A DNA stretch of 64,000 nucleotides, from assembly GCA_049643885.1 (NCBI GenBank), contig JBARQV010000055.1, positions 9,052 through 73,051 on the forward strand. Reading direction: 5' to 3'. The notes beneath the pieces are model-generated. The model worked only from the letters and a program-made list of their open reading frames with translations, was not told the DNA's origin and did no database searches. Origin of the DNA: Candidatus Omnitrophota bacterium. GTDB taxonomy: Bacteria > Omnitrophota > Gorgyraeia > Tantalellales > Tantalellaceae. The translations under genes and the position numbers were made by a program. This document shows, one piece after another, positions 1,861-44,574 of the stretch. Each line of letters starts with the position of its first letter. The first letter of the stretch is position 1.

Positions 1861-3375
<1,515 letters not shown>

Positions 3376-5858: not shown

Positions 5859-5891
5859 TCACACTCTTCCCTGTACTTCATTTTTCCGCTT

Positions 5892-5943
5892 CCAAATAAA
5901 AAAGCCCTTTCTAAGCCTTCTTCGCTTAAAAAGGGCTTCTTCG
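5892..5943 (-). terminator. Rho-independent terminator of the GAF-ANTAR/glnN transcript
   Basis: A 15-bp stem (AAGCCCTTTCTAAGC / GCTTAAAAAGGGCTT, one mismatch) with a 7-nt loop, followed on the minus strand by TTTTATTT. Confidence 0.6.
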
Positions 5944-6017
5944 CCTTTTATCTAACTTCTTTGTCAGTTACACGTTAGCACAAATAAGGAAAAATATCAA
6001 GCTTTCTATTTTCTTAA

Positions 6018-13957: not shown

Positions 13958-14063
13958 TATGTCATCCCGGAATCGTGCCGTAGGCACGATATCCGGGACC
14001 AATTAAAATTATTATGTGATCCCGGGTCTCCTTCGCCTTCGGCTCAGTCGCCCGGGATGACAT
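13958..14063. repeat. Two tandem palindromic repeat units (GTCATCCCGG-hairpin-CCGGGA family)
   Basis: Unit 1 is GTATGTCATCCCGGAATCGTGCCGTAGGCACGATATCCGGGA. Unit 2 is GTGATCCCGGGTCTCCTTCGCCTTCGGCTCAGTCGCCCGGGATGACAT, which is the reverse complement of the unit at 32198-32246 with one mismatch. Confidence 0.65.
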
Positions 14064-14070
14064 ATTTTCT

Positions 14071-15081
14071 TCATCCGCCATATCTATACGCCGCCGCGCA
14101 CGTCCCCTCTGATGAAACCATGCACGGCCCGACAGGGCTCCCGGGGGTGCACTTTTTCCCGAACAATCTGCAATCCCGGGGCGAGCTTATGCCCTGGAGA
14201 ACATCACCGCATAAACATCCTTTGGGCAGCGGCACATCGGGCACGTTTACGTTAAATTCTTTTTCCGCGTCAAATTGCCTGTATTCCTTTTTCAGCCTAA
14301 GGCCGCTTTTTTTTATTTTTCCCAGGCCCCGCCATTCCGAATCTCCCTGTTCAAAAACCGACTGCAGGATCTTGTTCGCTTTCCGGTTACCTTTCTTCTT
14401 CACGGCTCTTTTATATTCTATCTCTACCTTGCTGTCGCCTTTATTTACCTGATCGACCAGACGTTTTACTCCTTTTATGATATCGATCTCATCAAACCCG
14501 GTTATTACACAAGGCTTTCCGTAACGCGCCGCGATCCTCTCGTAAGGCGCACTCCCTGTAATGACGCTTACATGGCCGGGACAAATAAAACCGTCTATTT
14601 GTATCTTATCTGATCCCGCTATCGCCTCAAGGGCAGGGAAAATGACCTTAAAATTCGAAAGCAGGAAGAAATTCCTGATCTTCCGCTTCTTTGCCTCCAT
14701 GATCGTCGCCGCGGCAGTAGGAGAAGTGGTCTCGAACCCCACACCCATGAACACGACTCTTCTGGAAGGATTCTCTTCAGCGATCCTGAGGGCGTCAAGA
14801 CAAGAATAGACCACTAACACATCCGCCCCGCTCTCGGCCGCGTCCTGAAAACTTGACCTGCTTCCGGGAACGCGCACCATATCCCCGAAAGTGGTCATTA
14901 GCACGTCTTTGATGCCGGCTATTTCTACAGCCCTGTCGATATCCCGCTGGGACGTCACGCAAACGGGACACCCCGGGCCGGAAACAAGCTCGATCTCTTC
15001 AGGAAGGAGCTTTTTTATACCCGCCCTGGCGATAGCCATCGTATGCGTCCCGCATACTTCCATCAGTTTTATCTTTTTCAT
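14071..15081 (-). CDS. hypD: [NiFe]-hydrogenase maturation protein HypD
   Basis: CGTHT, GPGCPVC and CPVCV Fe-S/cysteine motifs of HypD. Confidence 0.9.
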   Translation of the reverse strand: MKKIKLMEVCGTHTMAIARAGIKKLLPEEIELVSGPGCPVCVTSQRDIDRAVEIAGIKDVLMTTFGDMVRVPGSRSSFQDAAESGADVLVVYSCLDALRIAEENPSRRVVFMGVGFETTSPTAAATIMEAKKRKIRNFFLLSNFKVIFPALEAIAGSDKIQIDGFICPGHVSVITGSAPYERIAARYGKPCVITGFDEIDIIKGVKRLVDQVNKGDSKVEIEYKRAVKKKGNRKANKILQSVFEQGDSEWRGLGKIKKSGLRLKKEYRQFDAEKEFNVNVPDVPLPKGCLCGDVLQGISSPRDCRLFGKKCTPGSPVGPCMVSSEGTCAAAYRYGG

Positions 15082-15083
15082 AG

Positions 15084-15362
15084 CTATTCTTCCTCCACAC
15101 TCTTATGCGTGTGGTATCCATTCCCTGCACGGAAGTATAGGGTGCTAACCGCGTCTTTGAGCTCTTTTAGGGCTTTGAGTGTATCCGCAGCTTCTTCTCT
15201 TTCGACCTTGCCTATAGCGAACCCGGCGTGAACAAGGACATAATCCCCTTCCCTGACGCCGCTCAAAACGCCGAGAGACACTTCCTTAAACACGCCTCCA
15301 AAATCCACTTTTGCCGTGTTTTTATTTACGCTTTTAACTTTTGCAGGAACTGCTAAGCACAT
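15084..15362 (-). CDS. hypC: [NiFe]-hydrogenase maturation protein HypC
   Basis: The N-terminal MCLAVPAKV (essential Cys2) and its roughly 90-aa size. Confidence 0.85.
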   Translation of the reverse strand: MCLAVPAKVKSVNKNTAKVDFGGVFKEVSLGVLSGVREGDYVLVHAGFAIGKVEREEAADTLKALKELKDAVSTLYFRAGNGYHTHKSVEEE

Positions 15363-16392
15363 GATATTGTCCTAACGCGATATTCAGGTCGTTGACGGGA
15401 ACAGACCTATTAATGAAAACATTAAATCCTTCCCGGGCCAGATCTTCTGTAACTTTTTTTCTTAAAAATTTATTCTGAAAAACTCCCCCGCTCAAGGCCA
15501 CGTCCGTGACCTTCGCCTTTTTCGACAGGGCCTTAACGGTTTTGACTGCGATCTCGGACATGGAATTATGGAATTTTGTCGCTACTTCTTCCTTCTTCTT
15601 TTTCCTTTTCACATCACCGGCCATACCCCGGAACAGGCCTTTAACATCTATAATATAACACTCTCCGTCTCTTATTGTTTCAAATCCATAGCTTTCTTCC
15701 AGATCGTCCCTGCACATCGATTCAAGCTTTATCGGCCCTTCCGCTTCATAAGACGCGTAAGTGCAGATCCCCAAAAGGGCCGCCGCGGCGTCAAAAAGGC
15801 GCCCCGCGCTTGACGTCAAAGGCGAATTTATATTCCTTGTCATCATCTCAAAAACAAGTTTTTTATCGCTCTCTGGAACATCTTTTATAAAGGAACTGCC
15901 CTCTTCCCCTAATATACTCAATACCATGCGCCAGGGCTGGCTTACGACCTTGTCGCCGCCGGGCATCTTCCTGTACTTCAGGTAAGCCGCCCTTTCGAAA
16001 CTATCGCCTCTGGCGATAAGGAACTCACCGCCCCAAATATTACCGTCTGCCCCATACCCTGTCCCGTCAAAAGAAACGCCGATAACCGGTCCCTTCAGGT
16101 CAAATTCGCGCATCACGCTCGCTATATGAGCGTGGTGGTGCTGAACGGGCACGACATCTTTGAAGGATCCTTTCGCAAATTTTGTCGAGAAATACCCGGG
16201 ATGAAGATCGCAGGCGACGATATCCGGTTTTGCCTTCTTTACAAGCTTGCGGACCTCTTTTTTGAAGAGTTCATAGTTCTGGACATCGCTTAAGTCTCCG
16301 ATATCCGGACCGGGATACAGAGAATCCCCTTTTGCCAGGAGAAACCTGTTCTTTATATCCGCTCCGGTTGCAAAAATCGTTCTATTTTTCAT
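15334..16392 (-). CDS. hypF: HypF-like carbamoyltransferase, Kae1/YgjD-like C-terminal domain only (no acylphosphatase, Zn-finger or YrdC domains)
   Basis: A 352-aa protein with the HHHAH metal motif, GGEFL and GGVFQN. It aligns to roughly residues 400-750 of full-length HypF. The ORF begins right at the domain boundary. Confidence 0.75.
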   Translation of the reverse strand: MKNRTIFATGADIKNRFLLAKGDSLYPGPDIGDLSDVQNYELFKKEVRKLVKKAKPDIVACDLHPGYFSTKFAKGSFKDVVPVQHHHAHIASVMREFDLKGPVIGVSFDGTGYGADGNIWGGEFLIARGDSFERAAYLKYRKMPGGDKVVSQPWRMVLSILGEEGSSFIKDVPESDKKLVFEMMTRNINSPLTSSAGRLFDAAAALLGICTYASYEAEGPIKLESMCRDDLEESYGFETIRDGECYIIDVKGLFRGMAGDVKRKKKKEEVATKFHNSMSEIAVKTVKALSKKAKVTDVALSGGVFQNKFLRKKVTEDLAREGFNVFINRSVPVNDLNIALGQYHVLSSSCKS

Positions 16393-16404
16393 ATTGCGTT
16401 AAAG

Positions 16405-16506
16405 GGACCGGTTGGGAGGGTGTTCCGTGCTCAAACAGTTCGAAAAAAAGCGACCTAAAATCGCTTTTTTTCGAAAACTCGCACTGAACACCCTCCCAAC
16501 CGGTCC
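16405..16506. repeat. 102-nt near-perfect palindrome (21-bp perfect outer arms and 13-bp inner arms)
   Basis: GGACCGGTTGGGAGGGTGTTC...CGAAAAAAAGCGA-cctaaaa-TCGCTTTTTTTCG...GAACACCCTCCCAACCGGTCC. It fills the whole hypA-like/hypF intergenic space. Confidence 0.7.
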
Positions 16507-16510
16507 TTTC

Positions 16511-16753
16511 TTACTCTATATCAAAAGATAACACTTGCACGATCGTTCCGGGAAAAAACGTGATATCAAGTTCCGCGTTCTCAAGGACCGTGCCCTTAGC
16601 CAGGACTTTAAACGTCTCTTTAAAAGATTCCTCTTTTACGCCTGTCAGCTCCCCGACTTTTAACTTCACCGTGGCAACACTCTTTGCCCCTTCTTTCTCG
16701 GCATGTTCCGCTATCCCTTTTATTATTGGCTCGATCAAATGGGTCTCATGCAT
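16511..16753 (-). CDS. hypA: HypA-like nickel-binding domain protein lacking the C-terminal zinc finger
   Basis: The N-terminal MHE nickel-binding motif (MHETHLIEPIIKG...), an 80-aa length and no cysteines. Canonical HypA is about 113 aa with CxxC-x12-CxxC. Confidence 0.55.
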   Translation of the reverse strand: MHETHLIEPIIKGIAEHAEKEGAKSVATVKLKVGELTGVKEESFKETFKVLAKGTVLENAELDITFFPGTIVQVLSFDIE

Positions 16754-17204
16754 TTTTCGTCTCCTTTATTTTATCCGTGATCTCCGATATCGCGTTTTTA
16801 ATGCTTTCCGACATCTCTTCACCGAAAGAAACATTTTCGGGCTGGACAGCCAACATGTAAATACCGGCCTTTGTTTCTTTCTCCAGAAATTCCAAAAATA
16901 AGTTCGGCGAAAGGTCATGCGTAGTAAGACCGGTTTTGGCTATCTCTTCCTTTTTCAGGAACGCATATTCGCCGGGTTTAAGGTCAAGATGTGCCGCATC
17001 GGCTATTACAACAGTATCGGGGTCTTCTTTGATTATTTTGCCGGTATAATTTTCAGGCGCACTGCCGGCGTCGATACATGTAAGATCTGTTTCAGCCTTC
17101 AGTTTCTCGATAAGGGCCGGGCCGAAAGCGTCATCGCCGCGCAAAACATTACCGATGCCTACAAAGACAACTTTCCCCTTTAATATCTTCTTAAATGTAT
17201 CCAT
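16746..17204 (-). CDS. Hydrogenase maturation endopeptidase (HycI/HyaD family)
   Basis: The VVFVGIGNVLRGDDAFG motif typical of the large-subunit C-terminal-processing proteases. Confidence 0.8.
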   Translation of the reverse strand: MDTFKKILKGKVVFVGIGNVLRGDDAFGPALIEKLKAETDLTCIDAGSAPENYTGKIIKEDPDTVVIADAAHLDLKPGEYAFLKKEEIAKTGLTTHDLSPNLFLEFLEKETKAGIYMLAVQPENVSFGEEMSESIKNAISEITDKIKETKNA

Positions 17205-17210
17205 AGAAAT

Positions 17211-17250
17211 ATGTCATCCCGGATGAGCCCAAAGGGCTCAATCCGGGATC
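17211..17250. repeat. Palindromic repeat unit (GTCATCCCGG-hairpin-CCGGGATC family)
   Basis: ATGTCATCCCGGATGAGCCCAAAGGGCTCAATCCGGGATC. It is the reverse complement of the unit at 18652-18692 apart from a single A/G difference in the loop (CCCAAAGGG versus CCCGAAGGG). Confidence 0.65.
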
Positions 17251-17268
17251 AAATAAAAGCAATAATCC

Positions 17269-17910
17269 TTACTCTTCGTGCTTTTTATTCTCTTCCGGCT
17301 TAGTGGTCAGGGTAGTCTCTCTCCTGCACCGCGCGCACACTATCTTAACCCTGTCGGACCTGCCGTAGTCCTTGAGCGCGGAAATAATATTCTCATCAAC
17401 AATACCAAGACTTTTCAGGCGGGATAGATAAAGGGTGGGATTGGAATAAGTCAATTCGCCTATTCTTTCGGATATCCATTTCAGGTGATCCTTGCATGTA
17501 ATAACATCGCCGCATACTTCACAAAGCTGCAGTTCCTTTTCGATTTTTTCGCTAGCTTCTTTTCGGTCAAAAAACGCGAGTTCCCAGTCAGTTGAAAGCT
17601 TGATGCCTTCATTGTCCGCGATGCATGCCGCTTCACACTGCCCGCAGAATATGCATGTATCGGTATGATGATACAATGTCCTTTTCGGATTTTCAGGATC
17701 CGCTGAATCCTCAAAAGAGAGCGCCTCCACCGGGCAGACCTGGACGCACGCCGTGCATCCCACGCATTTCTCGTCATCATATTTCGGCTGGCCCCTGAAG
17801 TTAGGATGAGGCTTGTGCATGACCTTGGGGAATTTGGACGTATATGGCCCTACGATAAGCGCTTTTATCGCTTCTAACAATTCTCTAATTTTTGGCTTCG
17901 GTATTCTCAT
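17269..17910 (-). CDS. 2x[4Fe-4S] ferredoxin subunit (NuoI/MbhN-like) with C-terminal Cys-rich extension
   Basis: The two cluster motifs CVGCTACVQVCP and CIFCGQCEAAC. The start is placed at MRIPKPKIRELL. The ORF-track start at 18033 overlaps mrpG. Confidence 0.7.
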   Translation of the reverse strand: MRIPKPKIRELLEAIKALIVGPYTSKFPKVMHKPHPNFRGQPKYDDEKCVGCTACVQVCPVEALSFEDSADPENPKRTLYHHTDTCIFCGQCEAACIADNEGIKLSTDWELAFFDRKEASEKIEKELQLCEVCGDVITCKDHLKWISERIGELTYSNPTLYLSRLKSLGIVDENIISALKDYGRSDRVKIVCARCRRETTLTTKPEENKKHEE

Positions 17911-17938
17911 TTTTGATTTTTGCTCTTTGATCTTTGAT

Positions 17939-18274
17939 CTATATTTCGCCCTCTTTGTCTTCTTTATACCTGTCGACGACGCTTCCTTCCCAGAGCTTGA
18001 CCCCTGCCCTGTGCGCACCCCTGGCCACGGCATGCGCCGCGACAGGAGCGGTCAGGAGAATGAACAATATACACAATAAAGATTTAAATCCCGCCGATGT
18101 AAAACCGACAATGAGAAACGTTCCGAAAAGTATGCTGCATGTCCCTAAAGTAACACTTTTCGTCGCCGCCTGAAGACGATTATAAACATCGGGGAGCCTC
18201 ACCAGACCGAGACACCCGAAAAAGTCAAACGCCAGTCCAACTACTATGAAAATAAGACCTATCTTCTCAATCAT
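17939..18274 (-). CDS. Mrp antiporter subunit G-like (MnhG/MbhC-like)
   Basis: The LGLVRLPDVYNRLQAATKSVTLG motif characteristic of MrpG/PhaG. Confidence 0.7.
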   Translation of the reverse strand: MIEKIGLIFIVVGLAFDFFGCLGLVRLPDVYNRLQAATKSVTLGTCSILFGTFLIVGFTSAGFKSLLCILFILLTAPVAAHAVARGAHRAGVKLWEGSVVDRYKEDKEGEI

Positions 18275-18635
18275 CGAAACTCTTTCCCTCCAGATATTTT
18301 GAAAGCGCCAGTGTGCTTATGAAACTCTGAAGCGCCCACGCTATCCCTATGTCAATATACCAGGACCTGCGGGTAGTAATGGTCAGCACCGCGCACAGGC
18401 CCACGATCAATATCCCGAGAATATCTATGGCCACGATCCTGTCAGCACCGGTAGGCCCTTTCCATATCCGGTAAAGACACATCAACGCGCCAAGTGTCAA
18501 TATATAAAGCGCCCTTCCGAAGAAACCGACCAGCGGCAGGTCCGGGTAAAACAGGAACGGAAAAGGCTTTATCAGTATCCTCGTGATGATCGCGCCTAAT
18601 ATGATCGCGCCTATGATCCACCTTATCATTTTCAT
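18267..18635 (-). CDS. Mrp antiporter subunit F-like (MnhF/MbhB-like)
   Basis: A small 3-TM protein with the GPTGADRIVAID segment typical of MrpF. Confidence 0.6.
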   Translation of the reverse strand: MKMIRWIIGAIILGAIITRILIKPFPFLFYPDLPLVGFFGRALYILTLGALMCLYRIWKGPTGADRIVAIDILGILIVGLCAVLTITTRRSWYIDIGIAWALQSFISTLALSKYLEGKSFDD

Positions 18636-18651
18636 GATTACATCCTTATTC

Positions 18652-18692
18652 GATCCCGGATTGAGCCCTTCGGGCTCATCCGGGATGACACA
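18652..18692. repeat. Palindromic repeat unit (inverted copy of the 17211-17250 unit)
   Basis: GATCCCGGATTGAGCCCTTCGGGCTCATCCGGGATGACACAT. Confidence 0.65.
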
Positions 18693-19193
18693 TTATTCAA
18701 AAATTTTGGACAGTATTTCCTCGAACCTTTTAATAATTATTTTTGTAGCGGCCTCGGTATCTTTATCTTTTACATCGATCCAGTGGACATACAAAAAACC
18801 GTTGTCCCTGTCCACGTCCACGCTCATCGTCCCCGGCGTAAGAGTTATAGAATTCGCCAGAAAGGTAAGTCCCGTATCAGTCTTCAGTTCCGTCTTCACT
18901 TTGACGATCCCCGGATTTATGGGAAGCTTCGGGTGCAATACGCGATAAGCCACGTCGATATTCGCCTTGAAGCACTCCCACAAAAACACCGGAACATACC
19001 AGAAAATAAAATAAAACCATCGATGGGGATGGCTTAGTTTCAGGGGCTCCTGTATAAAAAAGTCACCCGTTATAAAAGCCACAAAAGCCGCTATAAATAC
19101 ACCGACGACAAGATGCTGCCAGTCAGGCATCCAGTTCAAAAAGCACCATACCACGTAAGCCAATATGAATAATATTATCCTGCTTTTCATCAC
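18693..19193 (-). CDS. Mrp antiporter subunit E-like (MnhE/MbhA-like)
   Basis: A 166-aa membrane protein with the LTPGTMSVDV motif of MnhE. Confidence 0.6.
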   Translation of the reverse strand: MMKSRIILFILAYVVWCFLNWMPDWQHLVVGVFIAAFVAFITGDFFIQEPLKLSHPHRWFYFIFWYVPVFLWECFKANIDVAYRVLHPKLPINPGIVKVKTELKTDTGLTFLANSITLTPGTMSVDVDRDNGFLYVHWIDVKDKDTEAATKIIIKRFEEILSKIFE

Positions 19194-20698
19194 CCGATCC
19201 CCTTAAACACTATCACGGCGTATTTGGTGCCTTCTAAAAGGACGTCCGTAGCGCGCTCCAGAAAAAGCTGGTTCACGCCCGCGAGTAGAAGAACGCCTCC
19301 TACCAGGCAAATAAGCGCGAGCACGCCCATTGAAAGCCTCATAAAAATTGGGACTTCTTTTACCTGCCCGCATCTTTCCTTTAACTTGTCGTAGAAAGCG
19401 TATTTCATCACCTTCATGAAAGAGGCCAAAGTCAATACGCTGGCCAAAACCGCCCAGAAGGCGTACCCATATCTTCCCGCCTGGACAGCCGCGATAATAA
19501 TTATCAACTTGCTCCAGAAACCGTTAAAAGGCGGGATCCCGGCGATCGACATCGACGCTACCAGGCAGGTCGAACCTGTCACAGGCATTTTCTGGGACAA
19601 GCCGCCCATTTTCTGGAGATCACGCGTTCCCGTTGAGTATTCGAGCGCCCCGGAATTCAAAAAGAGGAGCGATTTAAAAATAGAGTGATTGAAAAGATGG
19701 AACAGCCCACCTAGTATCCCGAGCGGCGTTCCCAAGCCGATGCCCAGTATGACATATCCTATCTGGCTTATGGAGTGATACGCGAGAAGACGCTTAAAAT
19801 CCCACTGCCCGATAGCCAGGCACACTCCCACGACCATGGACAAAGCCCCAAGAAACAAAAAGATCTCCAAAACCTTGGGGGTCATACCGAACACGTTAAA
19901 GAAGATCCTGCACAAGGTATAAATACCGAGCGATTTTATTATGACTCCCGAAAGCATGGCCGATATAGGCGCCGGGGCTGAAGGGTGAGCGTCAGGCAGC
20001 CAGGCATGGAACGGGACAAGCGCCGCCTTCAGGCCGAACCCCATGATAAAAAGTACACTTACCATGAGGATAATATTCCCCCCTCCTTTTTGGGCCAGTA
20101 TAGAAGCCATGTCCGCCATGTTCAACGTCGAAGTATAACCGTAAAGAAGGACTATGCCTAAAAGGACAAAAAGAGAGCCGACGGTGCTCATAATGGCGTA
20201 CTTAAAGGCCGCTTCAAGCTCGTGTTTTTCAGTCCCGAAAGCGACCAGCGCGTAACTCGCCACGGACGCTATTTCCAGGAACACAAAAAGATTGAATATA
20301 TCCCCGGTTATAATGACACCGTTCATCCCTGCCAGCATGAGGAGGAACAGGCTATAGAACTTCCATTTGGAGGTATATTTTTTCATGTAATCTATGGAAA
20401 AGACCGAAATACAGAACGCTACCAGATTGACCGTTACCAGCATGAACGAGGTCAGGCCGTCAAGCACCATGGCTATACCGAAAGGAGGTTTCCATGCGCC
20501 GACTCCGTACACAAGAGTTCCGTATTTGTTATATATGAAAATAGCGGCGATCGAAAGCAAAAGCGAACCCAGTGTCGACAGGTTCCCCATAAAATCCGGA
20601 AACCATTTCAGCCGTTTTCCGCCCAGGGTTACAAGAAAAGCACCGGCAAGCGGGATAACCGTAAATAAAGGAATTATATTAGCTGCTTCTACTATCAT
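19190..20698 (-). CDS. Proton-translocating antiporter-like subunit (MrpD/NuoN family)
   Basis: A 502-aa polytopic protein with the NuoL/M/N-family core (WLPDAHPSAPAPISA...). Confidence 0.85.
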   Translation of the reverse strand: MIVEAANIIPLFTVIPLAGAFLVTLGGKRLKWFPDFMGNLSTLGSLLLSIAAIFIYNKYGTLVYGVGAWKPPFGIAMVLDGLTSFMLVTVNLVAFCISVFSIDYMKKYTSKWKFYSLFLLMLAGMNGVIITGDIFNLFVFLEIASVASYALVAFGTEKHELEAAFKYAIMSTVGSLFVLLGIVLLYGYTSTLNMADMASILAQKGGGNIILMVSVLFIMGFGLKAALVPFHAWLPDAHPSAPAPISAMLSGVIIKSLGIYTLCRIFFNVFGMTPKVLEIFLFLGALSMVVGVCLAIGQWDFKRLLAYHSISQIGYVILGIGLGTPLGILGGLFHLFNHSIFKSLLFLNSGALEYSTGTRDLQKMGGLSQKMPVTGSTCLVASMSIAGIPPFNGFWSKLIIIIAAVQAGRYGYAFWAVLASVLTLASFMKVMKYAFYDKLKERCGQVKEVPIFMRLSMGVLALICLVGGVLLLAGVNQLFLERATDVLLEGTKYAVIVFKGIG

Positions 20699-21036
20699 TA
20701 TCCTCGTAGCTCCCGAATTTTAGTAATGTCAAATGTTTGGTATTTCTGGTATATCCTCATGGCAATGGCGGCCAAAAGCGCGGTCGTCGCCAGTCCGATG
20801 ACGATGGCCGTGAGGACCAGCGCCTGGGGAAGCGCGTCGACCATATTCACGATCGTCTGGTCAGGAGCATAGATCGGGGCCCGCCCGCCCTCACGATACG
20901 CGGTCAGGATAAAGAACAGATTTACCGCGTATTCCATGATTATCACACCGATTATGATCTTGATCACGTTGCGCTTCCTCAAAACACAGTAAAGGCCTAT
21001 ACTAAAAAGCACGATACTTAAAAGATAAACAGTCAT
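20698..21036 (-). CDS. MrpC/NuoK-like membrane subunit
   Basis: A 112-aa, 3-TM protein positioned between the MrpD-like and MrpB-like genes. Confidence 0.7.
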   Translation of the reverse strand: MTVYLLSIVLFSIGLYCVLRKRNVIKIIIGVIIMEYAVNLFFILTAYREGGRAPIYAPDQTIVNMVDALPQALVLTAIVIGLATTALLAAIAMRIYQKYQTFDITKIRELRG

Positions 21037-24856: not shown

Positions 24857-25326
24857 ACACCTCTATCCCTTATTGCGCCCTCATCCCACTCCTTATAATC
24901 GCACCTCAAAGGATAGACACCTTCCGGCCATTCGTCAGGAAGAAGGAGTCTTCTCATATCAGGATGACCCTTGAAACTGATCCCCAGCATTTCGTTCATC
25001 TCTCTTTCTATCCAGTTTGCCGCCTCAAAAACAGGAGCAAGTGAATCGATCTCCAATCTATCTTTGGGCAGCTTTACTCTCAAAGATATCTGAAGATTTA
25101 TTTCTTCGATGATAAAATGATAAAGGATCTCCATGTGGAACCTGACATCCACGCCGGTCGCGATATTGAACCTCGCTCCCATATCTTTAAAAAGATAACT
25201 GCCGATCTTGACTATCGATTCAGGTTTTATCTCGATATAGACTCTCTTTTGGGACTTATCGAAAATATCGATAATATCGTCTTTGAATTTGCTTTTAAGA
25301 TTCTTTAAAACTTCATTCCTTGTCAT
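24853..25326 (-). CDS. NuoC-like (30 kDa) hydrogenase subunit
   Basis: ANWIEREMNEMLGISFKGHPDMRRLLL, the NuoC/EchD signature. Confidence 0.8.
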   Translation of the reverse strand: MTRNEVLKNLKSKFKDDIIDIFDKSQKRVYIEIKPESIVKIGSYLFKDMGARFNIATGVDVRFHMEILYHFIIEEINLQISLRVKLPKDRLEIDSLAPVFEAANWIEREMNEMLGISFKGHPDMRRLLLPDEWPEGVYPLRCDYKEWDEGAIRDRGV

Positions 25327-25361
25327 AATTCACTTCTCTGCTTGAGTATCCATCATCGATT

Positions 25362-25444
25362 GGGCGGGTCCTGTCGCTCAGTGCCCTGCGCGCCTCCGCG
25401 CCACTGGCTTGTGCGGTGCTCGGACACTGTCGCGCCACCCGCCC
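25362..25444 (+). repeat. GC-rich 83-nt structured repeat, copy A (GGGCGGGT...ACCCGCCC)
   Basis: It is 97-98% identical to the copies at 44575-44656 (+) and 30116-30198 (-). It has 8-bp terminal inverted repeats and an internal CAGTGTCC/GGACACTG stem. GC is about 70%, against roughly 45-50% for the flanks. Confidence 0.7.
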
Positions 25445-25485
25445 GCCGCTGACCGCAGACCGCTATGCCCTCTGCGCTCTGCTCT

Positions 25486-25911
25486 TTACTTCTTCCCTCT
25501 AACCTTCTCAATGAGCTTCACTACCCCCGCGATGATAGCTTCCGGCTTCGGGGGGCAGCCGGGAATATAAACGTCTACCGGGATGATCTTATCCAGCGGC
25601 ACGGGACAATTATAACTGTGGATGAACATGCCGCGGGACATGGAACATTCCCCTACAGCCACCACAAGCAAAGGTTTTGGCGCTTGTTCATATAATCTTT
25701 TCAATCTCTCCACGGACTTCCTATTACAAGAACCCGTGATCAGGAGCACATCTGCGTGTTTAATACTTCCGACAAGAAGCATCCCGAACCTCTCAATGTC
25801 GAACCTGGGGGTAAGACAATCGAGTATCTCGATATCGCAGTTATTACAACTACCGGTAGACAGGTGAAACACCCATGGAGACTTCAAAAGTGCTTTTAAT
25901 TTCATACTCAT
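25486..25911 (-). CDS. NuoB-like [NiFe]-hydrogenase small subunit (proximal 4Fe-4S)
   Basis: GSCNNCDIEI and VDVYIPGCPPKPE motifs. Confidence 0.85.
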   Translation of the reverse strand: MSMKLKALLKSPWVFHLSTGSCNNCDIEILDCLTPRFDIERFGMLLVGSIKHADVLLITGSCNRKSVERLKRLYEQAPKPLLVVAVGECSMSRGMFIHSYNCPVPLDKIIPVDVYIPGCPPKPEAIIAGVVKLIEKVRGKK

Positions 25912-25913
25912 GA

Positions 25914-26837
25914 TTATTTCCCTAATAATGCTAACACGACCGCTAGAGCAGCAAGAACCGTCATGGGGCCCCAGAAAAACCTCACCGCCTGGTCGATCCT
26001 CACCCGCGGGTTTGTATTCCGTATGACTGTTATTACCGCTACCAGTCCTATGTATTTCAGCACGCCGTATAAAAGATGAATACCGTCTACCCTCAAACCG
26101 CCCATGAACAGGATCATCAGGAAAAAAGGCAACGTGAACATGAGCATGTTCTTCATCAACCTGTAAACGGCGAGACCGGAACCTGAATATTCAATAAGCG
26201 CCCCTCCCGATATCTCCGTTTCCGCTTCCGGCATATCAAAAGGAACAAGGGCGAGTTTGGCCTGGGTGCACATAATGGCCACCACAAGGGCTATTACACC
26301 TGAAATGTTTCCCGCCACCACTCCGTTCGAAGCCTGAAAACTCAGGATATCCCCGATCCTTATAGAATATCCTGCTTTAATGACAGGCACTAAAAGCGCC
26401 AGGACAAAAGGAAGCTCGTAACTCAAGACAAGTTTCATCTCCCGCGAAGCACCCAAACTCGCAAAGGGATTGGCGGAGGCGAAACCCCCAATAATGATGC
26501 TTATAGAGGGAATGGTCAATAAATATATCGCGACAATAAGGTCCCCTAAAAATCCCGAGCCTGTATAGATATCATTCATCCAAAGCAAGGTCGACACCAC
26601 CACGACACTCCCGAAACCCAGGACAGGGGCCATCATGAAAGTCGCTTTTGAAGCACCGGCCGGGACAAGCGTCTCTTTTCCCAGGAGCTTGACTATGTCG
26701 ATCAAGGGCTGCAGAAGCGGCGGCCCGACTCGGTACTGCACCCGGGCAGTGACCTTCCTGTCGATCCAACTTGCCGCGAGCCCCATGGCGGCCGTCAGCA
26801 AAAATCCATAAACTAAAAGATATCCAATATAGTTCAC
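25914..26837 (-). CDS. NuoH-like membrane subunit (MbhM/EchB/HycD family)
   Basis: A 307-aa polytopic protein with the NuoH-family pattern. Confidence 0.8.
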   Translation of the reverse strand: MNYIGYLLVYGFLLTAAMGLAASWIDRKVTARVQYRVGPPLLQPLIDIVKLLGKETLVPAGASKATFMMAPVLGFGSVVVVSTLLWMNDIYTGSGFLGDLIVAIYLLTIPSISIIIGGFASANPFASLGASREMKLVLSYELPFVLALLVPVIKAGYSIRIGDILSFQASNGVVAGNISGVIALVVAIMCTQAKLALVPFDMPEAETEISGGALIEYSGSGLAVYRLMKNMLMFTLPFFLMILFMGGLRVDGIHLLYGVLKYIGLVAVITVIRNTNPRVRIDQAVRFFWGPMTVLAALAVVLALLGK

Positions 26838-27421
26838 GCTTTCTCCCTGTCCCAGTGAGTTGAATGGACTATTATGTTATCTCCTGCCAGGAATTCGTTC
26901 TCCCCGAGCTCCTTGTCAGCCTCTCTCAGGCTTAACGCCCCGTAGGGGCAAGTCGTTATGCAAAGCGGTTCTTGCTTCACGTCCCTCCGGTCCAGGCAGA
27001 AATCACAGTTGTGGACCAGGAGCGGAACAAGCTCGGGATAGATCGTCCCGTAAGGGCACGCATGCGAGCATGACCTGCAGCTTATACACCTCATGTTATG
27101 CCGCACGAGAAGAGCATCTTTCTCCTCCTCCTGCTCAAGCGCCTCTACCGGACACGCGGCGACACAGTGCGGATCCTCGCACCTGCGGCAGACAAGCGCG
27201 TAGGTAGCCAGTTCCGCCACGGAAAGGATCCCGTTATTCGCGGTCTGTCGGTGATACAAATAACTGCACTTTGTAACGCATTCTTCGCATTCACCGGAAG
27301 CGCAAACATCTAGATCGATAAAGAGCCTCTTGTCCTTGCCTTTCTTCGGCTCTACGTTCATCTTCCCCTGATGTATCTGTTCCGCGCTCGTATCCATATG
27401 GTTTTTGTCATCCCCGCGCAA
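26834..27421 (-). CDS. CooF/HycB-like multi-cluster 4Fe-4S ferredoxin
   Basis: Four CxxCxxCxxxCP-type motifs in 195 aa. Confidence 0.75.
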   Translation of the reverse strand: MRGDDKNHMDTSAEQIHQGKMNVEPKKGKDKRLFIDLDVCASGECEECVTKCSYLYHRQTANNGILSVAELATYALVCRRCEDPHCVAACPVEALEQEEEKDALLVRHNMRCISCRSCSHACPYGTIYPELVPLLVHNCDFCLDRRDVKQEPLCITTCPYGALSLREADKELGENEFLAGDNIIVHSTHWDREKA

Positions 27422-27432
27422 GCGGGGATCTA

Positions 27433-28260
27433 TTAATCCCAGATCTCGGAAAAATTCTTTATCTTGTCATACGTAAAAACTGGGCCATCCTTGCAGGCGT
27501 AATATGTCCCGATCCTGCAATGACCGCATTTACCTATGCCGCAGGACATGTTTTTTTCCATTGAAAGATAGATGTTGCCTTCTTTGAACCCCAGCTCCAG
27601 AAGTTTCATGGTCGCGAACCTCATCATTATAGGAGGTCCGCAGACGACCGCAATGCCTTTGGCGGAATCCATTTCGATACCGTCCATGATAGTGGTCACT
27701 ACCCCGACATTACCTTTCCACTCTTCGTCGCCGACATCGACCGTGAGCCTGAGATCAAGATCTTCCCTCTCGTGCCACCCGTGGATCTCGCTCCTGTAAA
27801 GCATTTCTTTGGACGCGCGGCACCCGCCTCTGAAAAACAGTTTCTTGAATTTTCCGCTCCTGTTGAAAAATTCATACATCAGGCTCCTCAAAGGCGCGTA
27901 ACCGCACCCGCCCCCGACAACCAGGACTTCCTTGCCTTCAAATTCATCCACCGGGTACCCGGTCCCGAGAGGGCCTCTCACACCGACCTTGTCACCTTTT
28001 TTAAGTTCATGGATCTTATCAGTGACTTTCCCTACCCTCATGACGGTGACTTCCAACACTTCTGTTGATTCAGGGTTTGAAGACGGCGTGAACGGCGCTT
28101 CCCCCACACCGGGAATGGTTATTTCCACAAACTGCCCGGTCTTGAAAGTCATGGGTTCTTTGGGTTTAAACCTTATCGTCTTGATGGTAGGCGTCTCGGT
28201 TATGACGTCAAGAACTTCGGCTTCGATCGGCCTGTATGGATTATTATTTTTCCCCATCAC
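27433..28260 (-). CDS. FAD/NAD(P)H-binding oxidoreductase subunit with C-terminal [2Fe-2S] (PyrK/HydG/AsrB/SudB family)
   Basis: A ferredoxin-reductase-like fold (FKTGQFVEI...GGGCGYAPL) and the C-terminal CGIGKCGHCRIG cluster motif. Confidence 0.75.
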   Translation of the reverse strand: MMGKNNNPYRPIEAEVLDVITETPTIKTIRFKPKEPMTFKTGQFVEITIPGVGEAPFTPSSNPESTEVLEVTVMRVGKVTDKIHELKKGDKVGVRGPLGTGYPVDEFEGKEVLVVGGGCGYAPLRSLMYEFFNRSGKFKKLFFRGGCRASKEMLYRSEIHGWHEREDLDLRLTVDVGDEEWKGNVGVVTTIMDGIEMDSAKGIAVVCGPPIMMRFATMKLLELGFKEGNIYLSMEKNMSCGIGKCGHCRIGTYYACKDGPVFTYDKIKNFSEIWD

Positions 28261-29284
28261 TATCTTTCAGTCTTCTTAGAACTTTCCTTATGTCTATTTT
28301 AGCCGGGCAGGCGGTTATACACCGGCCGCACCCGGTGCAGGCATGAAAATCGGCTACTTTAGGGAAAAAATCGAATTTTTTATCGAACCTGTTCCTGAGC
28401 CGCATCCAGAGTTTCTCCCTGGGGTTCGCACCCCCGGCGACCCGGGCGTAATCTTTTATCATGCACGAATCCCAGATCCTGAGCCGGGTCATCTTATCTT
28501 CGCTTTGCTGGTCATACAAGAGAAAACAATGGCAAGTGGGACAGATGATCGTGCATGCTCCGCATTCCACGCATGTCTTGGCCTCGTCGCTCCAGATATC
28601 GGATTCCCAGTTTCTTTCGATAATATCTTTCCTGAACTTATCATAACTGGGGACATTATTTTCCTTAATATTATTTTCTACTTCCTTCATAACCCGGTTA
28701 CGCTGCTCGTCCCTTTGGCGGATCATATCCGGCTTTGCTTCAATAAAGAGAGACGGGTTCTTGTCTATTAGTTCCTGGCCTCTCTTTGAACCGGTTTCCA
28801 CAACAAAACCCTTTTTGACCGGAGAAAGGCCGAGATCAAAATTTTCCTGGGGATACGGCTGATTTCCTGCCGCGAGACAGTAACACGTGTCTATCGTGCA
28901 GGTGCAATCGGAAGCTATGACCAGATTTTCTTCACGATTTTTAACGTAAAAAGGGTCCACATGATCATGATCCTTAAAAACATGATCCTGGACTTTGAAA
29001 CCCTGTCTCAGGTCGCAGTTCTTGACCCCTACTATCGCAAAAGGCTTGTCCCTGGAGTGGGGGATCTCGGGGCTGAAATCCTCGGCAACGACCTCTCTGG
29101 CCATGGTGAAAAAGGCTTTCAGCGGCTCAAAAGGCCTTACCTCGCCGATCATGATATCATCAGACCAATCATTGAGTTCTTTATAAAACCTTTGGTCGCC
29201 TTTCTTGACCGGGGCAAAGACCCTGTAATCCTTTTTCAGGTTTTCGAGTAAGATCGCGAGTTCATTAATAGCTAAATATTTCAT
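28244..29284 (-). CDS. 4Fe-4S dicluster protein, AsrA/HydB family (sulfhydrogenase beta-like)
   Basis: CVECGACTIICPTCHC and CTGCGRCITACP motifs in a 346-aa protein. It partners with the HydG-like gene. Confidence 0.7.
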   Translation of the reverse strand: MKYLAINELAILLENLKKDYRVFAPVKKGDQRFYKELNDWSDDIMIGEVRPFEPLKAFFTMAREVVAEDFSPEIPHSRDKPFAIVGVKNCDLRQGFKVQDHVFKDHDHVDPFYVKNREENLVIASDCTCTIDTCYCLAAGNQPYPQENFDLGLSPVKKGFVVETGSKRGQELIDKNPSLFIEAKPDMIRQRDEQRNRVMKEVENNIKENNVPSYDKFRKDIIERNWESDIWSDEAKTCVECGACTIICPTCHCFLLYDQQSEDKMTRLRIWDSCMIKDYARVAGGANPREKLWMRLRNRFDKKFDFFPKVADFHACTGCGRCITACPAKIDIRKVLRRLKDSDGEK

Positions 29285-29910
29285 TTCTTTTCCGCCAAAA
29301 AATACGAAAGCGTCTCGAGCTCACGCGAAAGGTCGACATCCTTGACTTTTACATTATCGGGAACATTCAGACTGACCGGGGCGAAATTGAGCAGGCATTC
29401 AATACCGCTGTTCACGAGTTCATTCGCCACTTCCTGGGCTTTATCGGAAGGGACGGCGATAATACCGATACTTATATTTTTTTTCGCTACCGTCTCCTGC
29501 AGGTCGCTCAAAGGCTGTATTATTATCCCGCCCAATTCTTTGCCGATCTTTTTTTCGCTCTCGTCAAAAGCGGCAACGATCTCTAGCCCGTGCTTTTTAA
29601 ATCCTGAATATGAAATGAGCGCTGAACCCAGGTGACCGGCGCCGACAACAGCAACGTTCCAGGTCTTATCCTTCCCCAGTATCTTTTCCAGAGCCTGTTT
29701 CAGTTCCTTCGTGTCATAACCGGAACCGCTCACCCCGAACTGCCCGAAATACCCCAGGTCTTTCCTTACCTGGGCGTCGCTTAGGTTTGTCCTGTCTCCT
29801 AATTCAGCTGATGATATGGTCCGGATGTTCAGCTTGACCAGTTCCGCCAGCTCACGCAAGTAAATGAAAAGACGGGAAATCGTTCCCTCGGGGATTTTTT
29901 TTCCGCTCAT
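29281..29910 (-). CDS. rex: Redox-sensing transcriptional repressor Rex
   Basis: A winged-helix N-terminus (ISSAELGDRTNLSDAQVRKDLGYFGQFG) and a Rossmann motif (VAVVGAGHLG). The start is placed at MSGKKIPEGT; the ORF-track start is an extension. Confidence 0.85.
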   Translation of the reverse strand: MSGKKIPEGTISRLFIYLRELAELVKLNIRTISSAELGDRTNLSDAQVRKDLGYFGQFGVSGSGYDTKELKQALEKILGKDKTWNVAVVGAGHLGSALISYSGFKKHGLEIVAAFDESEKKIGKELGGIIIQPLSDLQETVAKKNISIGIIAVPSDKAQEVANELVNSGIECLLNFAPVSLNVPDNVKVKDVDLSRELETLSYFLAEKK

Positions 29911-29917
29911 ATTTGGA

Positions 29918-29935
29918 TTGTGATAATCTTCACAG
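29918..29935. promoter_or_regulatory. Candidate Rex operator (TTGTGA-N6-TCACAG)
   Basis: A near-consensus Rex box (TTGTGAAnnnnTTCACAA) 8-25 nt upstream of the rex ATG, at the head of the hydrogenase operon. Confidence 0.5.
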
Positions 29936-30115
29936 ACTTCGTTCCGATTTTCACGAATATAATACTTTCGCAATAAAAAGTCAAGAGTTTTTTGGGGTGC
30001 TGGATGCTTGTCGTTAGTCGGTCGTCGGTCGTATTTCAAAGGACAGAGTGCGGAGCGGAGATATCAGATAGCATAGCGCAAAGAGCATCGCGGTTTGTGG
30101 TGTGCGGTCTTCGAT

Positions 30116-30198
30116 GGGCGGGTGGCGCGACGGTGTCCGAGCACCGCACAAGCCATTGGCGCGGAGGCGCGCAGGACACTGAGCGACAGGACCCGCCC
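30116..30198 (-). repeat. GC-rich 83-nt structured repeat, copy B (inverted orientation)
   Basis: It is the reverse complement of the 44575-44656 copy with 2 mismatches. About 40 nt of flanking sequence show weaker similarity to the copy-A flank. Confidence 0.7.
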
Positions 30199-30301
30199 AC
30201 TGGTAAACAGCCCTCTGCCTCGTTCTTCGAAAGTTGGAAAAATACCGTTAAAAAAATTGGTTGGGAAAGATTTTATTGTTTTTGCAAAGCTCAATGCTCG
30301 A

Positions 30302-32149
30302 CTAATGGCGCCTGCGCTTGCCGAGAAGGACTATGTCACGCAGGGCTTTCTCGTCCTTCGCTCTCATCCATTTTTTCTCGAAATGCGTATCCTGCACTAT
30401 TTGTGCGATAGCCGAAAGCGCGCGAAGGTGAAAATTGCGCTCGTCCTTCGTCCCCGCAATGACGAAGACGGTCCTCACTTTGCCTTCCGTTTCCGGAAAT
30501 ACTATGCCCCCCTTGCAGCGCACGAGGAGCATAACGAAATCCTTCTTCCCGTCTATTATAATGTGAGGTATGGCAAGCCCCGGAGCGAGAACGGTGCTGC
30601 TTTCCTTCTCCCTTTCAAGGAATTTATTGTAAATTACATCGGCGCTCGTTGAGAGCCTTTCCGAGAGCTTTTCCGAGGCGAGCCTGAAGAACTCGTCGGC
30701 GTTCATGGGTCCCGGAATATCGAGGACGATCGCCTCTTCCACGGATCTGTCGAACCTGTCCTTGACTATCTCATCCCTCTCCCTTATTATCTCTTTAAGC
30801 TCCTCTTCAAGCGTGACATCCACCAGCTCGCGGGCGGTCAGTCTTTCTATAAGATGTAAAAGCGCGAAATCTCTTCTTGCCCTTTCCCTGCCGTAAAACC
30901 AGTAAACCAGAAGCCCGCACGCGAAAAGCGTCGATCCCAGAAAAAGCGCCGCTTTACCCATGCCGACCACGAGCTGCCAGCACCCGAAGATCCCGATTAT
31001 CTGCGTCCAGGGATAAAAAGGCGAGCGGAAACGTGGCTGGTAGTTCTGGACCCTGCTCTCCCTCATGATGATGACGCAGAGCCCGGAAAATATGAAAGTA
31101 AATATAAGTACGGTCGAGGCAATTTTCACAAGTATACTGAGCTTAAGGAAGACCGCGATTATCATTAAGAGGCCGGTAAAGACGATCGAAATATGCGGAG
31201 TCTTGAACTTGGGATGTACGTTAGAGAAAAACTCAGGAAGCAGTCTGTCCCTGCTGAGGGCCAGGGGATACCTTGAAGCTGACATGATGCCCGCGTTGGC
31301 GGTCGAGATAAAAGCGAGCATCGCCGCAAAGGCCATTGCGAGCACTCCCCATTCTCCCATGAACACGCCCGCGCCGGCGGATATAGGAGTAAGGGAATTA
31401 TCAAGCGCCCCGCCCGGAAGTACACCGGTAGTGATAAACACGACCAGGGTATAAAGCACTCCCACCGCTGTAAGTGAAAGTATCATTCCCAGGGGCACCG
31501 TCCTCGCCGGATTTTTTACTTCTTCAGCAATGCTGGCGACTTTCAGAAGCCCTCCGTATGATATAAAGACAAATCCCGCCGTTGAAAAAACAGCGGCAAG
31601 GCCGTTGGGCATAAAGGGCTTAAGATTGGAATATTTTACGGCCGGCCAGCCTTTGAAAATATAAAAAACAAGTAAGCCGATAAGAACAATTACTATCACC
31701 GTCTGCACCTTTCCCGCTCCCTTGATCCCTATGTAATTCAAAATAACGAAAAAAGCGCAAAAAGCCAGGGCGATAAGCCGCGGATCCACACCAAGCATAA
31801 GATGGGTAAAGGCCGCCATTCCTACGAGGGCAAAAGAGCTTTTCAGGGAAACCGAAAGCCAGGTAAGCAAGCCGTCTACTGTCGCGATAGCGGGTCCCAT
31901 GCTTCGGGCGACGTAAAAATAAGTGCCTCCCGCTTTGGGCATTGCGGAGACAAGTTCGGCTTGGCTCAGCATACCCATCACGGCCAAAAGCCCCGCAAGA
32001 AAATAAGAAGCGATGACTGCGGGTCCGGCTTTGGCGTGGGCCAAGCCGGGAAGGACAAACAGCCCGGAACTGATCATCGCCCCGGAGGCTATGCAGAAAA
32101 CATCAAGAAGTCCAAGCTCCCGTTTAAGCGTAGAATTTTTTCTTCGCAT
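30302..32149 (-). CDS. APC-family amino-acid permease fused to a C-terminal PTS EIIA(Ntr/fructose)-type domain
   Basis: About 430 aa of 12-TM permease followed by a cytoplasmic domain with GLAIPHIII...VRTVFVIAGTKDE (EIIA-2 fold). Confidence 0.7.
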   Translation of the reverse strand: MRRKNSTLKRELGLLDVFCIASGAMISSGLFVLPGLAHAKAGPAVIASYFLAGLLAVMGMLSQAELVSAMPKAGGTYFYVARSMGPAIATVDGLLTWLSVSLKSSFALVGMAAFTHLMLGVDPRLIALAFCAFFVILNYIGIKGAGKVQTVIVIVLIGLLVFYIFKGWPAVKYSNLKPFMPNGLAAVFSTAGFVFISYGGLLKVASIAEEVKNPARTVPLGMILSLTAVGVLYTLVVFITTGVLPGGALDNSLTPISAGAGVFMGEWGVLAMAFAAMLAFISTANAGIMSASRYPLALSRDRLLPEFFSNVHPKFKTPHISIVFTGLLMIIAVFLKLSILVKIASTVLIFTFIFSGLCVIIMRESRVQNYQPRFRSPFYPWTQIIGIFGCWQLVVGMGKAALFLGSTLFACGLLVYWFYGRERARRDFALLHLIERLTARELVDVTLEEELKEIIRERDEIVKDRFDRSVEEAIVLDIPGPMNADEFFRLASEKLSERLSTSADVIYNKFLEREKESSTVLAPGLAIPHIIIDGKKDFVMLLVRCKGGIVFPETEGKVRTVFVIAGTKDERNFHLRALSAIAQIVQDTHFEKKWMRAKDEKALRDIVLLGKRRRH

Positions 32150-32197
32150 TGCATATTAATTATACACGAGCGTGGTGAAGAAAAAAAGGATTAGAAG

Positions 32198-32302
32198 TAT
32201 GTCATCCCGGGCGACTGAGCCAAAGGCGAAGGAGACCCGGGATCACACAAAATTTTTATTTGATCCCGGATATTTCGCTTCGCGAAATTCCGGGATAACA
32301 TA
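32198..32302. repeat. Two tandem palindromic repeat units (GTCATCCCGG family)
   Basis: TATGTCATCCCGGGCGACTGAGCCAAAGGCGAAGGAGACCCGGGATCAC is the inverse of the 14016-14063 unit. It is followed by GATCCCGGATATTTCGCTTCGCGAAATTCCGGGATAACAT. Confidence 0.65.
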
Positions 32303-44559: not shown

Positions 44560-44574
44560 TATCCACTATCCAAT

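Follow-up and report, generated by a model that had tools for sequence, protein, structure and literature searches.

Bacterial repetitive extragenic palindromes (REPs) have been divided into a GTAG-tagged and a CGTC-tagged superfamily (Di Nocera, De Gregorio and Rocco 2013, BMC Genomics 14:522, PMC3733652). In the accessible part of that article, CGTC REPs are described as hairpins with an unpaired tag, often TGTC or CCTC, a stem of 8–9 bp that nearly always opens with complementary A-T then T-A pairs, a loop of 4–5 nt and a tail of three nucleotides, mostly CCA. Units lie between unidirectional or convergent open reading frames (ORFs) near the upstream 3' end, and dimers are predominantly head-head (HH), rarely tail-tail (TT) and negligibly head-tail (HT), with many heterodimers and spacers of 20–100 nt (PMC3733652). 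The same part of the article places the class in five phyla, mainly in Alphaproteobacteria, and not in linkage to transposase genes; tyrosine transposase genes occur in several CGTC-positive species, none of them flanked by CGTC units. Unusual loops are noted there just for Bradyrhizobium, Kosmotoga and Mesotoga, and the Neisseria dRS3 and Rickettsia RPE-4 and RPE-6 repeats are counted as members (PMC3733652). Here we analyse seven palindromic units in a 64-kb stretch of DNA (the window; contig JBARQV010000055.1, positions 9,052 to 73,051) from a Candidatus Omnitrophota metagenome-assembled genome (MAG), where the host genes are those of an Mbh/Mrp-type [NiFe] hydrogenase and its hyp maturation system. 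These units probably belong to the CGTC-tagged superfamily as a TGTC variant, that is, as short, non-autonomous, dispersed hairpin elements.

The dRS3 repeats with the Neisseria NIMEs, as well as RPE-4 and RPE-6, share with the window units the frame GTCAT-stem...stem-ATC-N-A and are likewise small, dispersed and often paired. The dRS3 stem reads ATTCCC-N8-GGGAAT; larger repeat units are bordered by dRS3 units, which phage also use as an integration target. The stem sequence of dRS3 and the RPEs differs from that of the window units, and RPEs often lie inside genes whereas the window units never do (0/7). The GTAG REPs, REPINs and bacterial interspersed mosaic elements (BIMEs) of E. coli and Pseudomonas are likewise polar imperfect palindromes (Bertels and Rainey 2011, PMC3116915; Nunvar et al.). 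They also use inverted doublets as the repeated unit, lie outside genes after stop codons and have likely effects on mRNA. However, their tag is GTAG instead of TGTC, and their defining link to a flanked single-copy REP-associated tyrosine transposase (RAYT) was not found here. Integron attC sites are comparable by analogy only: structure, not sequence, is what is preserved, with a constant stem base, a polarity that comes from extrahelical bases and a variable terminal hairpin. Unlike attC sites, the window units lack RYYYAAC/GTTRRRY core sites, an integrase and a cassette organisation, their ends are TGTCAT and ATCNA, and the genes that they flank are conserved operon genes. No integrase domain was found in the window.

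Structure of the units

The first-pass annotation had reported six units at four loci, and their coordinates and motif were confirmed by re-reading and by a pattern scan, which detected six units of the form TCCCGG-N(20-26)-CCGGGA and no more in the window. This paired motif occurred on average 0.18 times, and at most twice, in 200 first-order Markov simulations. Likewise, GTCATCCCGG with up to one mismatch occurred 21 times in the window as compared with 3.7 ± 1.9 times in shuffles. The hexamer TCCCGG was found 82 times against 44 ± 7 expected; only 12 of these 82 fall in the seven units, which indicates a background excess of the hexamer. The seventh unit, E, was revealed by a covariance model (R1) that was built from related units and then run on the window (Table 1). 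A further match of the model at 47446-47482 (14 bits, E 0.17) lies inside a PBP-family gene and was taken as chance.

The six long units have the layout TGTCATCCCGG-[variable hairpin]-CCGGGATCA, their orientation being set by the TGTC head. The oriented consensus is (A)TA-TGTCATCCCGG-[variable hairpin]-A-N-CCGGGATC-R-M-A-Y-AA, and conservation reaches outward as far as (A)TA-TGTCAT (5') and ATC-R-M-A-Y-AA (3'). In a unit, the (C/T)GTC tag is unpaired, and the lower stem of 8 bp is made up of ATCCCGG and one further, covarying pair. A conserved purine bulges out on the 3' side, the upper hairpin is variable, and the C-N-A tail is short and runs into an A-rich stretch. The variable part, previously given as a hairpin of 12–15 bp, measured 20–26 nt and comprises an upper stem of 6–8 bp with a loop of 3–4 nt. 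Of the shared ends that had been reported, the core was present in all six units, but the head is TGTT in D2 and the 3' arm of A1 is degenerate (CCGGGAC). The tag is TGTC in the other six of the seven units. The stem is framed AT...AT in A2, B, C, D1, D2 and E and AT...AC in A1; the tails read CAC, CAA, CGA, CAA and CTA, and CAA after the variant ACC in A1.

Unit E alone combines an 8-bp stem with a 4-nt loop (GCAA). In the other six units the 8-bp lower stem is joined by a second helix of 6–8 bp, and an A is bulged out. In A1, for example, the TGTC tag is followed by the lower stem ATCCCGG+A, the upper hairpin ATCGTGCC-GTAG-GGCACGAT, the bulged A and the A-rich tail. A2 represents a class with a CGA/GAGA internal loop and the apex GCGACTGAGCC-GAA-GGCGAAGGAGAC, and the apex of D2 is ATTTCGC-GAAG-GCGAAAT. 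Head (GTCAT) and tail (ATCAC) pair imperfectly, with a C-C mismatch, and therefore every unit has a polarity. The hairpins predicted for the transcribed strand reach -21 to -29 kcal/mol in the six long units and -15.7 kcal/mol in E (z -4.1 to -6.3).

Table 1. Palindromic units of the window, the gaps that hold them, and further features named in the text. Scores are those of covariance model R1; folds are in kcal/mol; gap lengths are in nt.
Feature	Coordinates	Strand	Location and class	R1 score	Predicted fold	Gap in relatives	Gap in window
Unit A1	13960-14002	+	hypD-hypE gap; left member of HH heterodimer A	36.9 bits, E 4e-7	-28, z -6.3	19-75	about 140, with A1 + A2
Unit A2	14016-14062	-	right member of HH dimer A; TGTC head 8 nt past hypD stop	36.1 bits	-28.9, z -5.8		
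Unit B	17212-17252	+	singleton in nuoI-like/hycI gap	42.3 bits, E 2e-8	-28.2, z -6.1	11-39	64, with B
Unit C	18650-18690	-	singleton in mrpE-mrpF gap; sequence type of B, opposite orientation	44.4 bits, E 6e-9		12-16	57, with C
Unit E	27406-27432	+	FAD/NAD-Fer4_11 gap; TGTC-ATCCCCGC-GCAA-GCGGGGAT-CTA; 8-bp stem, 4-nt loop	24.1 bits, E 7e-4	-15.7, z -4.3	1-15	35, with E
Unit D1	32200-32246	+	upstream of permease; left member of HH heterodimer D; A2 sequence type	36.1 bits	-27.2, z -4.1	110-126, no unit	154, with D1 + D2
Unit D2	32260-32300	-	right member of HH dimer D; head 3 nt past stop of 209-aa gene	40.3 bits, E 6e-8	-21.3, z -4.7		
84-nt element	25361-25444	+					
84-nt element	30116-30199	-					
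84-nt element	44574-44657	+					
108-nt palindrome	16402-16509		hypA-hypF gap		-74, z -12.6		
22-bp inverted repeat	53232-53278		adjoins tRNA-Asn				
tRNA-Asn	53275-53350	-					
Spurious ORF start	13960 onward		through doublet A				
Spurious ORF start	32201 onward		through doublet D				
Spurious ORF	L001 11001-11120						
Other gap fillers	L189 1151-1240, 11134-11255, 14205-14281						
Other gap filler	L188 1416-1486						

A comparison set of 273 distinct units was assembled from all loci. The closing pair beside the 3' bulged purine covaries (A..T, C..G, G..C) in 217 of these units. Covariation of the upper helix was assessed in an ungapped alignment of 55 equal-length units: 118 cells were changed on both sides as compared with 36 ± 4 after shuffling, and none of 500 shuffles reached 118. 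In the same helix, 91% of cells were paired as compared with 20–44% when the partners were slid. The lower stem was preset by the search pattern and is uninformative on covariation. The first base of the tag was T in 238 units, C in 31 and G in 4, a distribution biased towards T as the search patterns mostly required it. The commonest tail of the set was CCA (a TCCA ending; 90/273 units).

The window units match the accessible description of CGTC REPs in tag, stem opening, HH heterodimers, position, the lack of an adjacent transposase and occurrence in distant phyla, and unit E has the exact format of 8-bp stem and 4-nt loop described there. We regard the long units as a compound-stem variant within this class. 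The host lineages Omnitrophota and Patescibacteria are not mentioned for the class in the accessible part of PMC3733652, and the supplements of that article contained no ATCCCGG-type sequences. A full-text literature search for the exact motif GTCATCCCGG returned unrelated primer sequences only.

Empty sites, doublets and host range

All five loci of the window lie between co-directional genes, and in each the element begins 0–16 nt past the upstream stop codon, in agreement with the earlier placement of the units in short gaps at gene 3' ends. Unit B has its tail 16 nt past the nuoI-like stop and its head 7 nt ahead of the hycI start codon; the head of C lies 2 nt past the mrpE stop and its tail 14 nt ahead of the mrpF start. 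Unit E adjoins the stop codon of the FAD/NAD-binding subunit gene, 8 nt ahead of the Fer4_11 start, and D1 lies between a 209-aa hypothetical gene and the promoter region of the permease gene. In the window and Omnitrophota-like contigs together, crude gene calls gave 17 unidirectional, 1 convergent and 3 divergent contexts.

Syntenic regions were obtained from relatives with protein identities of 68–95% (NuoI-like 75–95%, permease 73–84%), and the covariance model detected no unit at E<=1 in these loci (79 kb + 14 kb). The gaps of the relatives are compared with those of the window in Table 1. Since all five loci are empty in relatives, the units are lineage-specific insertions. In the relative L191, TTTTTGAATAA is followed directly by TAAGGAT, whereas in the window the same TTTTTGAATAA is followed by an insertion that runs from TGTGTCATCCCGG to CCGGGATCGAA and only then by TAAGGAT. 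Unit C is thus seen as a 44-nt insertion right behind the mrpE stop codon; a target duplication is not clear at this site. The nuoI-hycI gap of the relatives L186-L189 and L192 contained no unit. In the corresponding gap of L191 (an 88% relative), positions 3297-3325 read TACGGGGCGCCCGGGGTGATGTATTTCTATG, which is similar to the head side of window unit B, CCGGGATGACATATTTCTATG, and may represent a decayed or truncated unit at the site of B. The relatives without units have other short tandem or palindromic fillers in gaps of the same operon, e.g., GGTCTCA x4 and GTAACC/GGTTAC palindromes.

The near-identical inverted pairs described earlier were found again on re-checking: B differs from the reverse complement of C by one loop base (A/G) and A2 from the reverse complement of D1 by one base. 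These pairs span 38 and 46 nt, the similarity of A and D extending to 79 nt at 91%. Pfam searches also agreed on the genes that each pair encloses. Moreover, when dimer D is reverse-complemented it matches dimer A along about 110 nt, except at one apex. Dimer A is an inverted copy of dimer D over the full length, and the doublet itself is the repeated unit, as in REPINs.

More generally, units occur singly or as tags-outward (HH) heterodimers of about 110 nt. Both doublets of the window are of this kind; in Omnitrophota-like contigs 17 HH, 0 TT and 0 HT dimers were counted, and in a broad genome sample 40 HH, 2 TT and 7 HT, the two apexes of a dimer always being different. Within a doublet, head is perfectly complementary to head and tail to tail. 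The predicted doublet fold with head:head and tail:tail stems and two arms reaches -57 kcal/mol (z -8.5), and this four-way junction is predicted to be isoenergetic with two separate hairpins.

Further copies, as anticipated in the first-pass annotation, are present in related metagenome contigs and in many other bacteria. A pattern tuned to the lineage matched 24 metagenome contigs. Those among them with 42–49% GC carried the same A-rich tails, their unit density rising to 7 per 12.9 kb, and apex types recurred in them unchanged at different flanks and with different partners; near-identical units at separate loci are usual for the family in related metagenome contigs. In a scan of one genome per species, the core was found in at least 120 loci. 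Among the matches listed, most were from Alphaproteobacteria (e.g., Caulobacter, Phenylobacterium, Bradyrhizobium, Methylobacterium, Microvirga, Bosea), and other hosts included Coxiellaceae and Thioalkalivibrio, with Gammaproteobacteria among the classes, Alteromonas, Fibrobacter, Saccharibacteria, Parcubacteria and Omnitrophota. The complete genome of Henriciella (OZ244132.1) also has the core, and a 20-kb stretch of the Omnitrophota genome CP070684.1 contained no unit. The interiors of the units folded with a mean minimum free energy of -6.0 kcal/mol as compared with -2.5 kcal/mol when shuffled, and 72% as compared with 34% reached -3 kcal/mol or lower. These observations uphold the earlier description of a REP/BIME-like family, with dispersed palindromic units at gene 3' ends and further copies elsewhere.

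About half of 35 IMG/VR matches were real units, and four of these lie in alphaproteobacterial gene transfer agent (GTA) or prophage head-gene clusters. In GTA- or prophage-like portal-protease-capsid clusters of the IMG/VR contigs L009, L016, L032 and L035 the units are situated between the prohead protease and major capsid genes; L009 has two inverted units 2.7 kb apart with the capsid gene between them. In another group of contigs, from Comamonadaceae, other betaproteobacteria and Fibrobacter among others (L085, L100, L148, L161, L046, L049, L067, L089, L097, L106, L111), the head GTCATCCCGG is tandemly duplicated 9–16 nt upstream of a minimal unit, e.g., GTCATCCCGGACTTGATCCGGGATCCAGTGCCA; the same core seems to be arranged in another way here.

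Mobilisation, possible RNA role and alternative explanations

The units would spread by a single-stranded, hairpin-recognising cut-and-insert or copy process that makes no target duplication, catalysed in trans by an enzyme not encoded beside the units. Mobilisation through a folded single strand is proposed because of the analogy with RAYT/IS200-type HUH enzymes, which leave no target duplication. Clustering of 1710 ORFs within 1.5 kb of units yielded no candidate enzyme; the recurrent neighbours were phage or GTA portal, protease and capsid genes on the IMG/VR contigs, and chance matches inside one phage gene.

Once inserted, the stem-loops would act, if at all, on mRNA. As insertion took place inside co-directional operons, units are co-transcribed in either orientation. 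The hairpins could block 3'-to-5' exonucleases and thereby give operon segments different stabilities, and, lying about 15 nt or less from stop codons, they could also impair termination or translation of the gene upstream. For E. coli REPs, such effects on exonucleases and on termination and translation were reportedly described by Newbury et al. in 1987 and by Liang, Rudd and Deutscher in 2015. A terminator role, one of those named earlier for REP/BIME-like elements, did not hold for the units: past the stems the sequence continues with ACATA... or ATCAMATAA and in no unit with a T-run, and a terminator scan of 13.5-32.8 kb included none of the seven units among its 32 terminator-like sites.

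Several results weigh against the assignment of the units to the CGTC class as mobile hairpins. Six of the seven window units depart from the format given in the accessible part of PMC3733652, a bulged purine and a variable second helix replacing the loop, and the units could be placed at the level of the superfamily, not in one of the subfamilies CGTC-1 to CGTC-4. The covariation of the upper stem is equally expected of a hairpin that functions at the DNA level. The three singletons are not all in one orientation, and a role at the RNA level would therefore have to be orientation-independent. For transposition itself, we infer the mechanism in a class that has no known mobilising enzyme. A protein-collection search with the ORF through doublet D found the doublet-A ORF of the same scaffold only. 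Finally, all seven units are within 18.3 kb of the 64-kb window, and this clustering near hydrogenase genes could reflect local amplification. Unit loci occupy 5 of the 24 intergenic gaps of the hydrogenase region and none of about 44 other gaps (p=0.004); such a distribution could arise if units spread locally or if long co-directional operons are preferred.

Inverted doublets with a short spacer, repeated as a whole and able to fold as one large structure with head-head and tail-tail pairing, would also be expected of classical REPs or REPINs mobilised by a RAYT encoded elsewhere in the genome, and the one filled/empty site without a clear target duplication is what HUH enzymes would leave. 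To be RAYT targets is indeed among the roles that had been named earlier for such elements. However, the tag of the units is TGTC/CGTC and not the GT[AG]G of RAYT-associated REPs, and a tblastn search with E. coli RayT, run on the window and on 1.54 Mb of unit-bearing loci, returned no match below E=1. Pfam detected no Y1_Tnp match, nor any other transposase or recombinase domain, in the window, and the accessible part of PMC3733652 has the tyrosine transposases of CGTC-positive species never flanked by CGTC units. A RAYT origin is thus regarded as unlikely. Derivation from a DDE insertion sequence with TGTCATCCCGG terminal inverted repeats, in the manner of miniature inverted-repeat transposable elements, would fit ends that are nearly inverted copies and units that are dispersed and insertion-polymorphic; it is very unlikely for units of only 27–47 nt whose head (TGTCAT) and tail (ATC-N-A) consistently differ and thus have polarity, with no evident target duplication at site C and, in the neighbourhood of about 190 loci, no insertion sequence or DDE transposase bearing ends of this kind.

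Two further explanations concern the locus itself. Stable hairpins that lie at the 3' ends of operon genes and are clustered in the mbh/hyp region might have evolved locally as intrinsic terminators or attenuators of the hydrogenase operon without being mobile. This is scarcely credible given the terminator results above, the near-identical copies at unrelated flanks, the empty orthologous gaps of relatives and the same core in unrelated phyla and gene contexts. The two inverted pairs, with one mismatch each over 38 and 46 nt, could formally serve as substrates for inversion or deletion, as had been pointed out earlier, and might be recombination sites for programmed rearrangement of mrpF-mrpG-nuoI (B/C) or of the segment from hypD to the permease (A/D). 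No sign of such use was seen. The orders hypD-hypE and mrpE-mrpF-mrpG are canonical; hypD-hypE, mrpE-mrpF-mrpG-nuoI-hycI and Rex beside the permease are the same in relatives without units, and three other assemblies of the species have the same gene order. As order and orientation are the same with and without units, the inverted pairs are not markers of inversion or of a cassette. Moreover, no recombinase gene is nearby, inversion would break operons, and the same apex types recur at other, unrelated loci in relatives; programmed recombination is accordingly the least probable of the explanations considered.

Within the preferred assignment to the CGTC class, we tentatively consider a narrower and rather doubtful possibility, namely that the TGTC-ATCCCGG hairpin is one horizontally spreading element instead of several look-alikes without common origin, and that the HH heterodimer, folded as a four-way junction, would be the substrate of a trans-acting enzyme other than RAYT. 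Hosts labelled as belonging to about ten phyla, Omnitrophota and the reduced-genome Patescibacteria among them, share the core almost to the base, and the marks of polarity (tag, head-tail C-C mismatch, bulged purine and covarying closing pair) are conserved.

Gene context, other repeats and significance

All genes of the unit-bearing stretch lie on the minus strand according to Pfam. The order of transcription begins with the 209-aa hypothetical gene, [D2 D1], amino-acid permease-EIIA, Rex, Fer4_22, the FAD/NAD subunit and [E], and continues with Fer4_11, NuoH-like, the 20-kDa, 30-kDa and [NiFe] large subunits. It then proceeds through MrpA-like, MbhD/E, MrpB, MrpC, MrpD, MrpE, [C], MrpF, MrpG, NuoI-like and [B] to HycI, HypA, HypF (C-terminal half), HypC, HypD, [A2 A1] and HypE. 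Elsewhere in the window the genes are ordinary ones for housekeeping, signalling and glycosyltransferases. HypF (15334-16392) consists of the C-terminal Kae1-like half only (352 aa; 352–407 aa in relatives), and in the window and the relatives alike the N-terminal acylphosphatase/zinc-finger/YrdC part is not adjacent. In the region 4386-6017, the CTP synthase ORF at 4386-5573 begins at position 144 of the CTP_synth_N profile, and the N-terminal 143 or so residues are not in frame upstream; 395 or 458 aa are called in other assemblies. A frameshift, a pseudogene or an error in the assembly is suggested by these findings.

Apart from the units, a second dispersed repeat was observed, an 84-nt GC-rich element (TGGGCGGGTCCTGTCGCTCAGTG...CCACCCGCCC) with complementary ends in three copies that are 93–97% identical (Table 1). 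One copy is inside the mbh operon between the genes of the 30-kDa and 20-kDa subunits. Rfam gave no match to the element, nor did it turn up in the other loci that were retrieved. The hypA-hypF gap, which is 11 nt long in the relative L187, is filled in the window by a 108-nt near-perfect palindrome with 29-nt outer arms and an inner A/T-rich hairpin. A perfect 22-bp inverted repeat with a 3-nt loop adjoins tRNA-Asn and is probably a bidirectional terminator. Rfam at gathering scores found tRNA-Asn only in the window, and at E<=5 over 13.9-32.4 kb there were chance-level miRNA and snoRNA matches only.

The units also leave traces in annotation and assembly. They open with ATG TCA TCC CGG (from ATGTCATCCCGG), and spurious small ORFs starting with MSSR run through the doublets; one such 39-aa product sits in a public protein collection. 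The window sequence recurs in several MAGs, source MAGs being GCA_049642145.1, GCA_049644745.1, GCA_049645485.1 and ENA ERZ23498717, and for two window proteins the nearest homologues carry the name Candidatus Omnitrophota. The boundaries of two short-read contigs of the species fall at palindromes, with the end at the A doublet and the start inside another one, and the species' short-read contigs break inside the 108-nt palindrome, as expected because these are repeats. The palindromes of the units thus break short-read assemblies of the MAGs.

Taken together, the units are real but ordinary, and their class has already been described. At this locus they have left the hydrogenase and hyp genes intact and in ancestral order, and any local effect is probably on the stability of mRNA segments or on translation at the adjacent stop codons. 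The analysis adds to the class the host lineages Omnitrophota and MAGs of the candidate phyla radiation (CPR)/Patescibacteria, a compound-stem variant with strong covariation and a clean pair of empty and filled sites. If the hairpin were one spreading element, these data would give the recognition features and the host range for finding its enzyme by phylogenetic profiling. The class has been without a known mobilising enzyme since its description in 2013, and the sharper recognition motif could help in the search for it.

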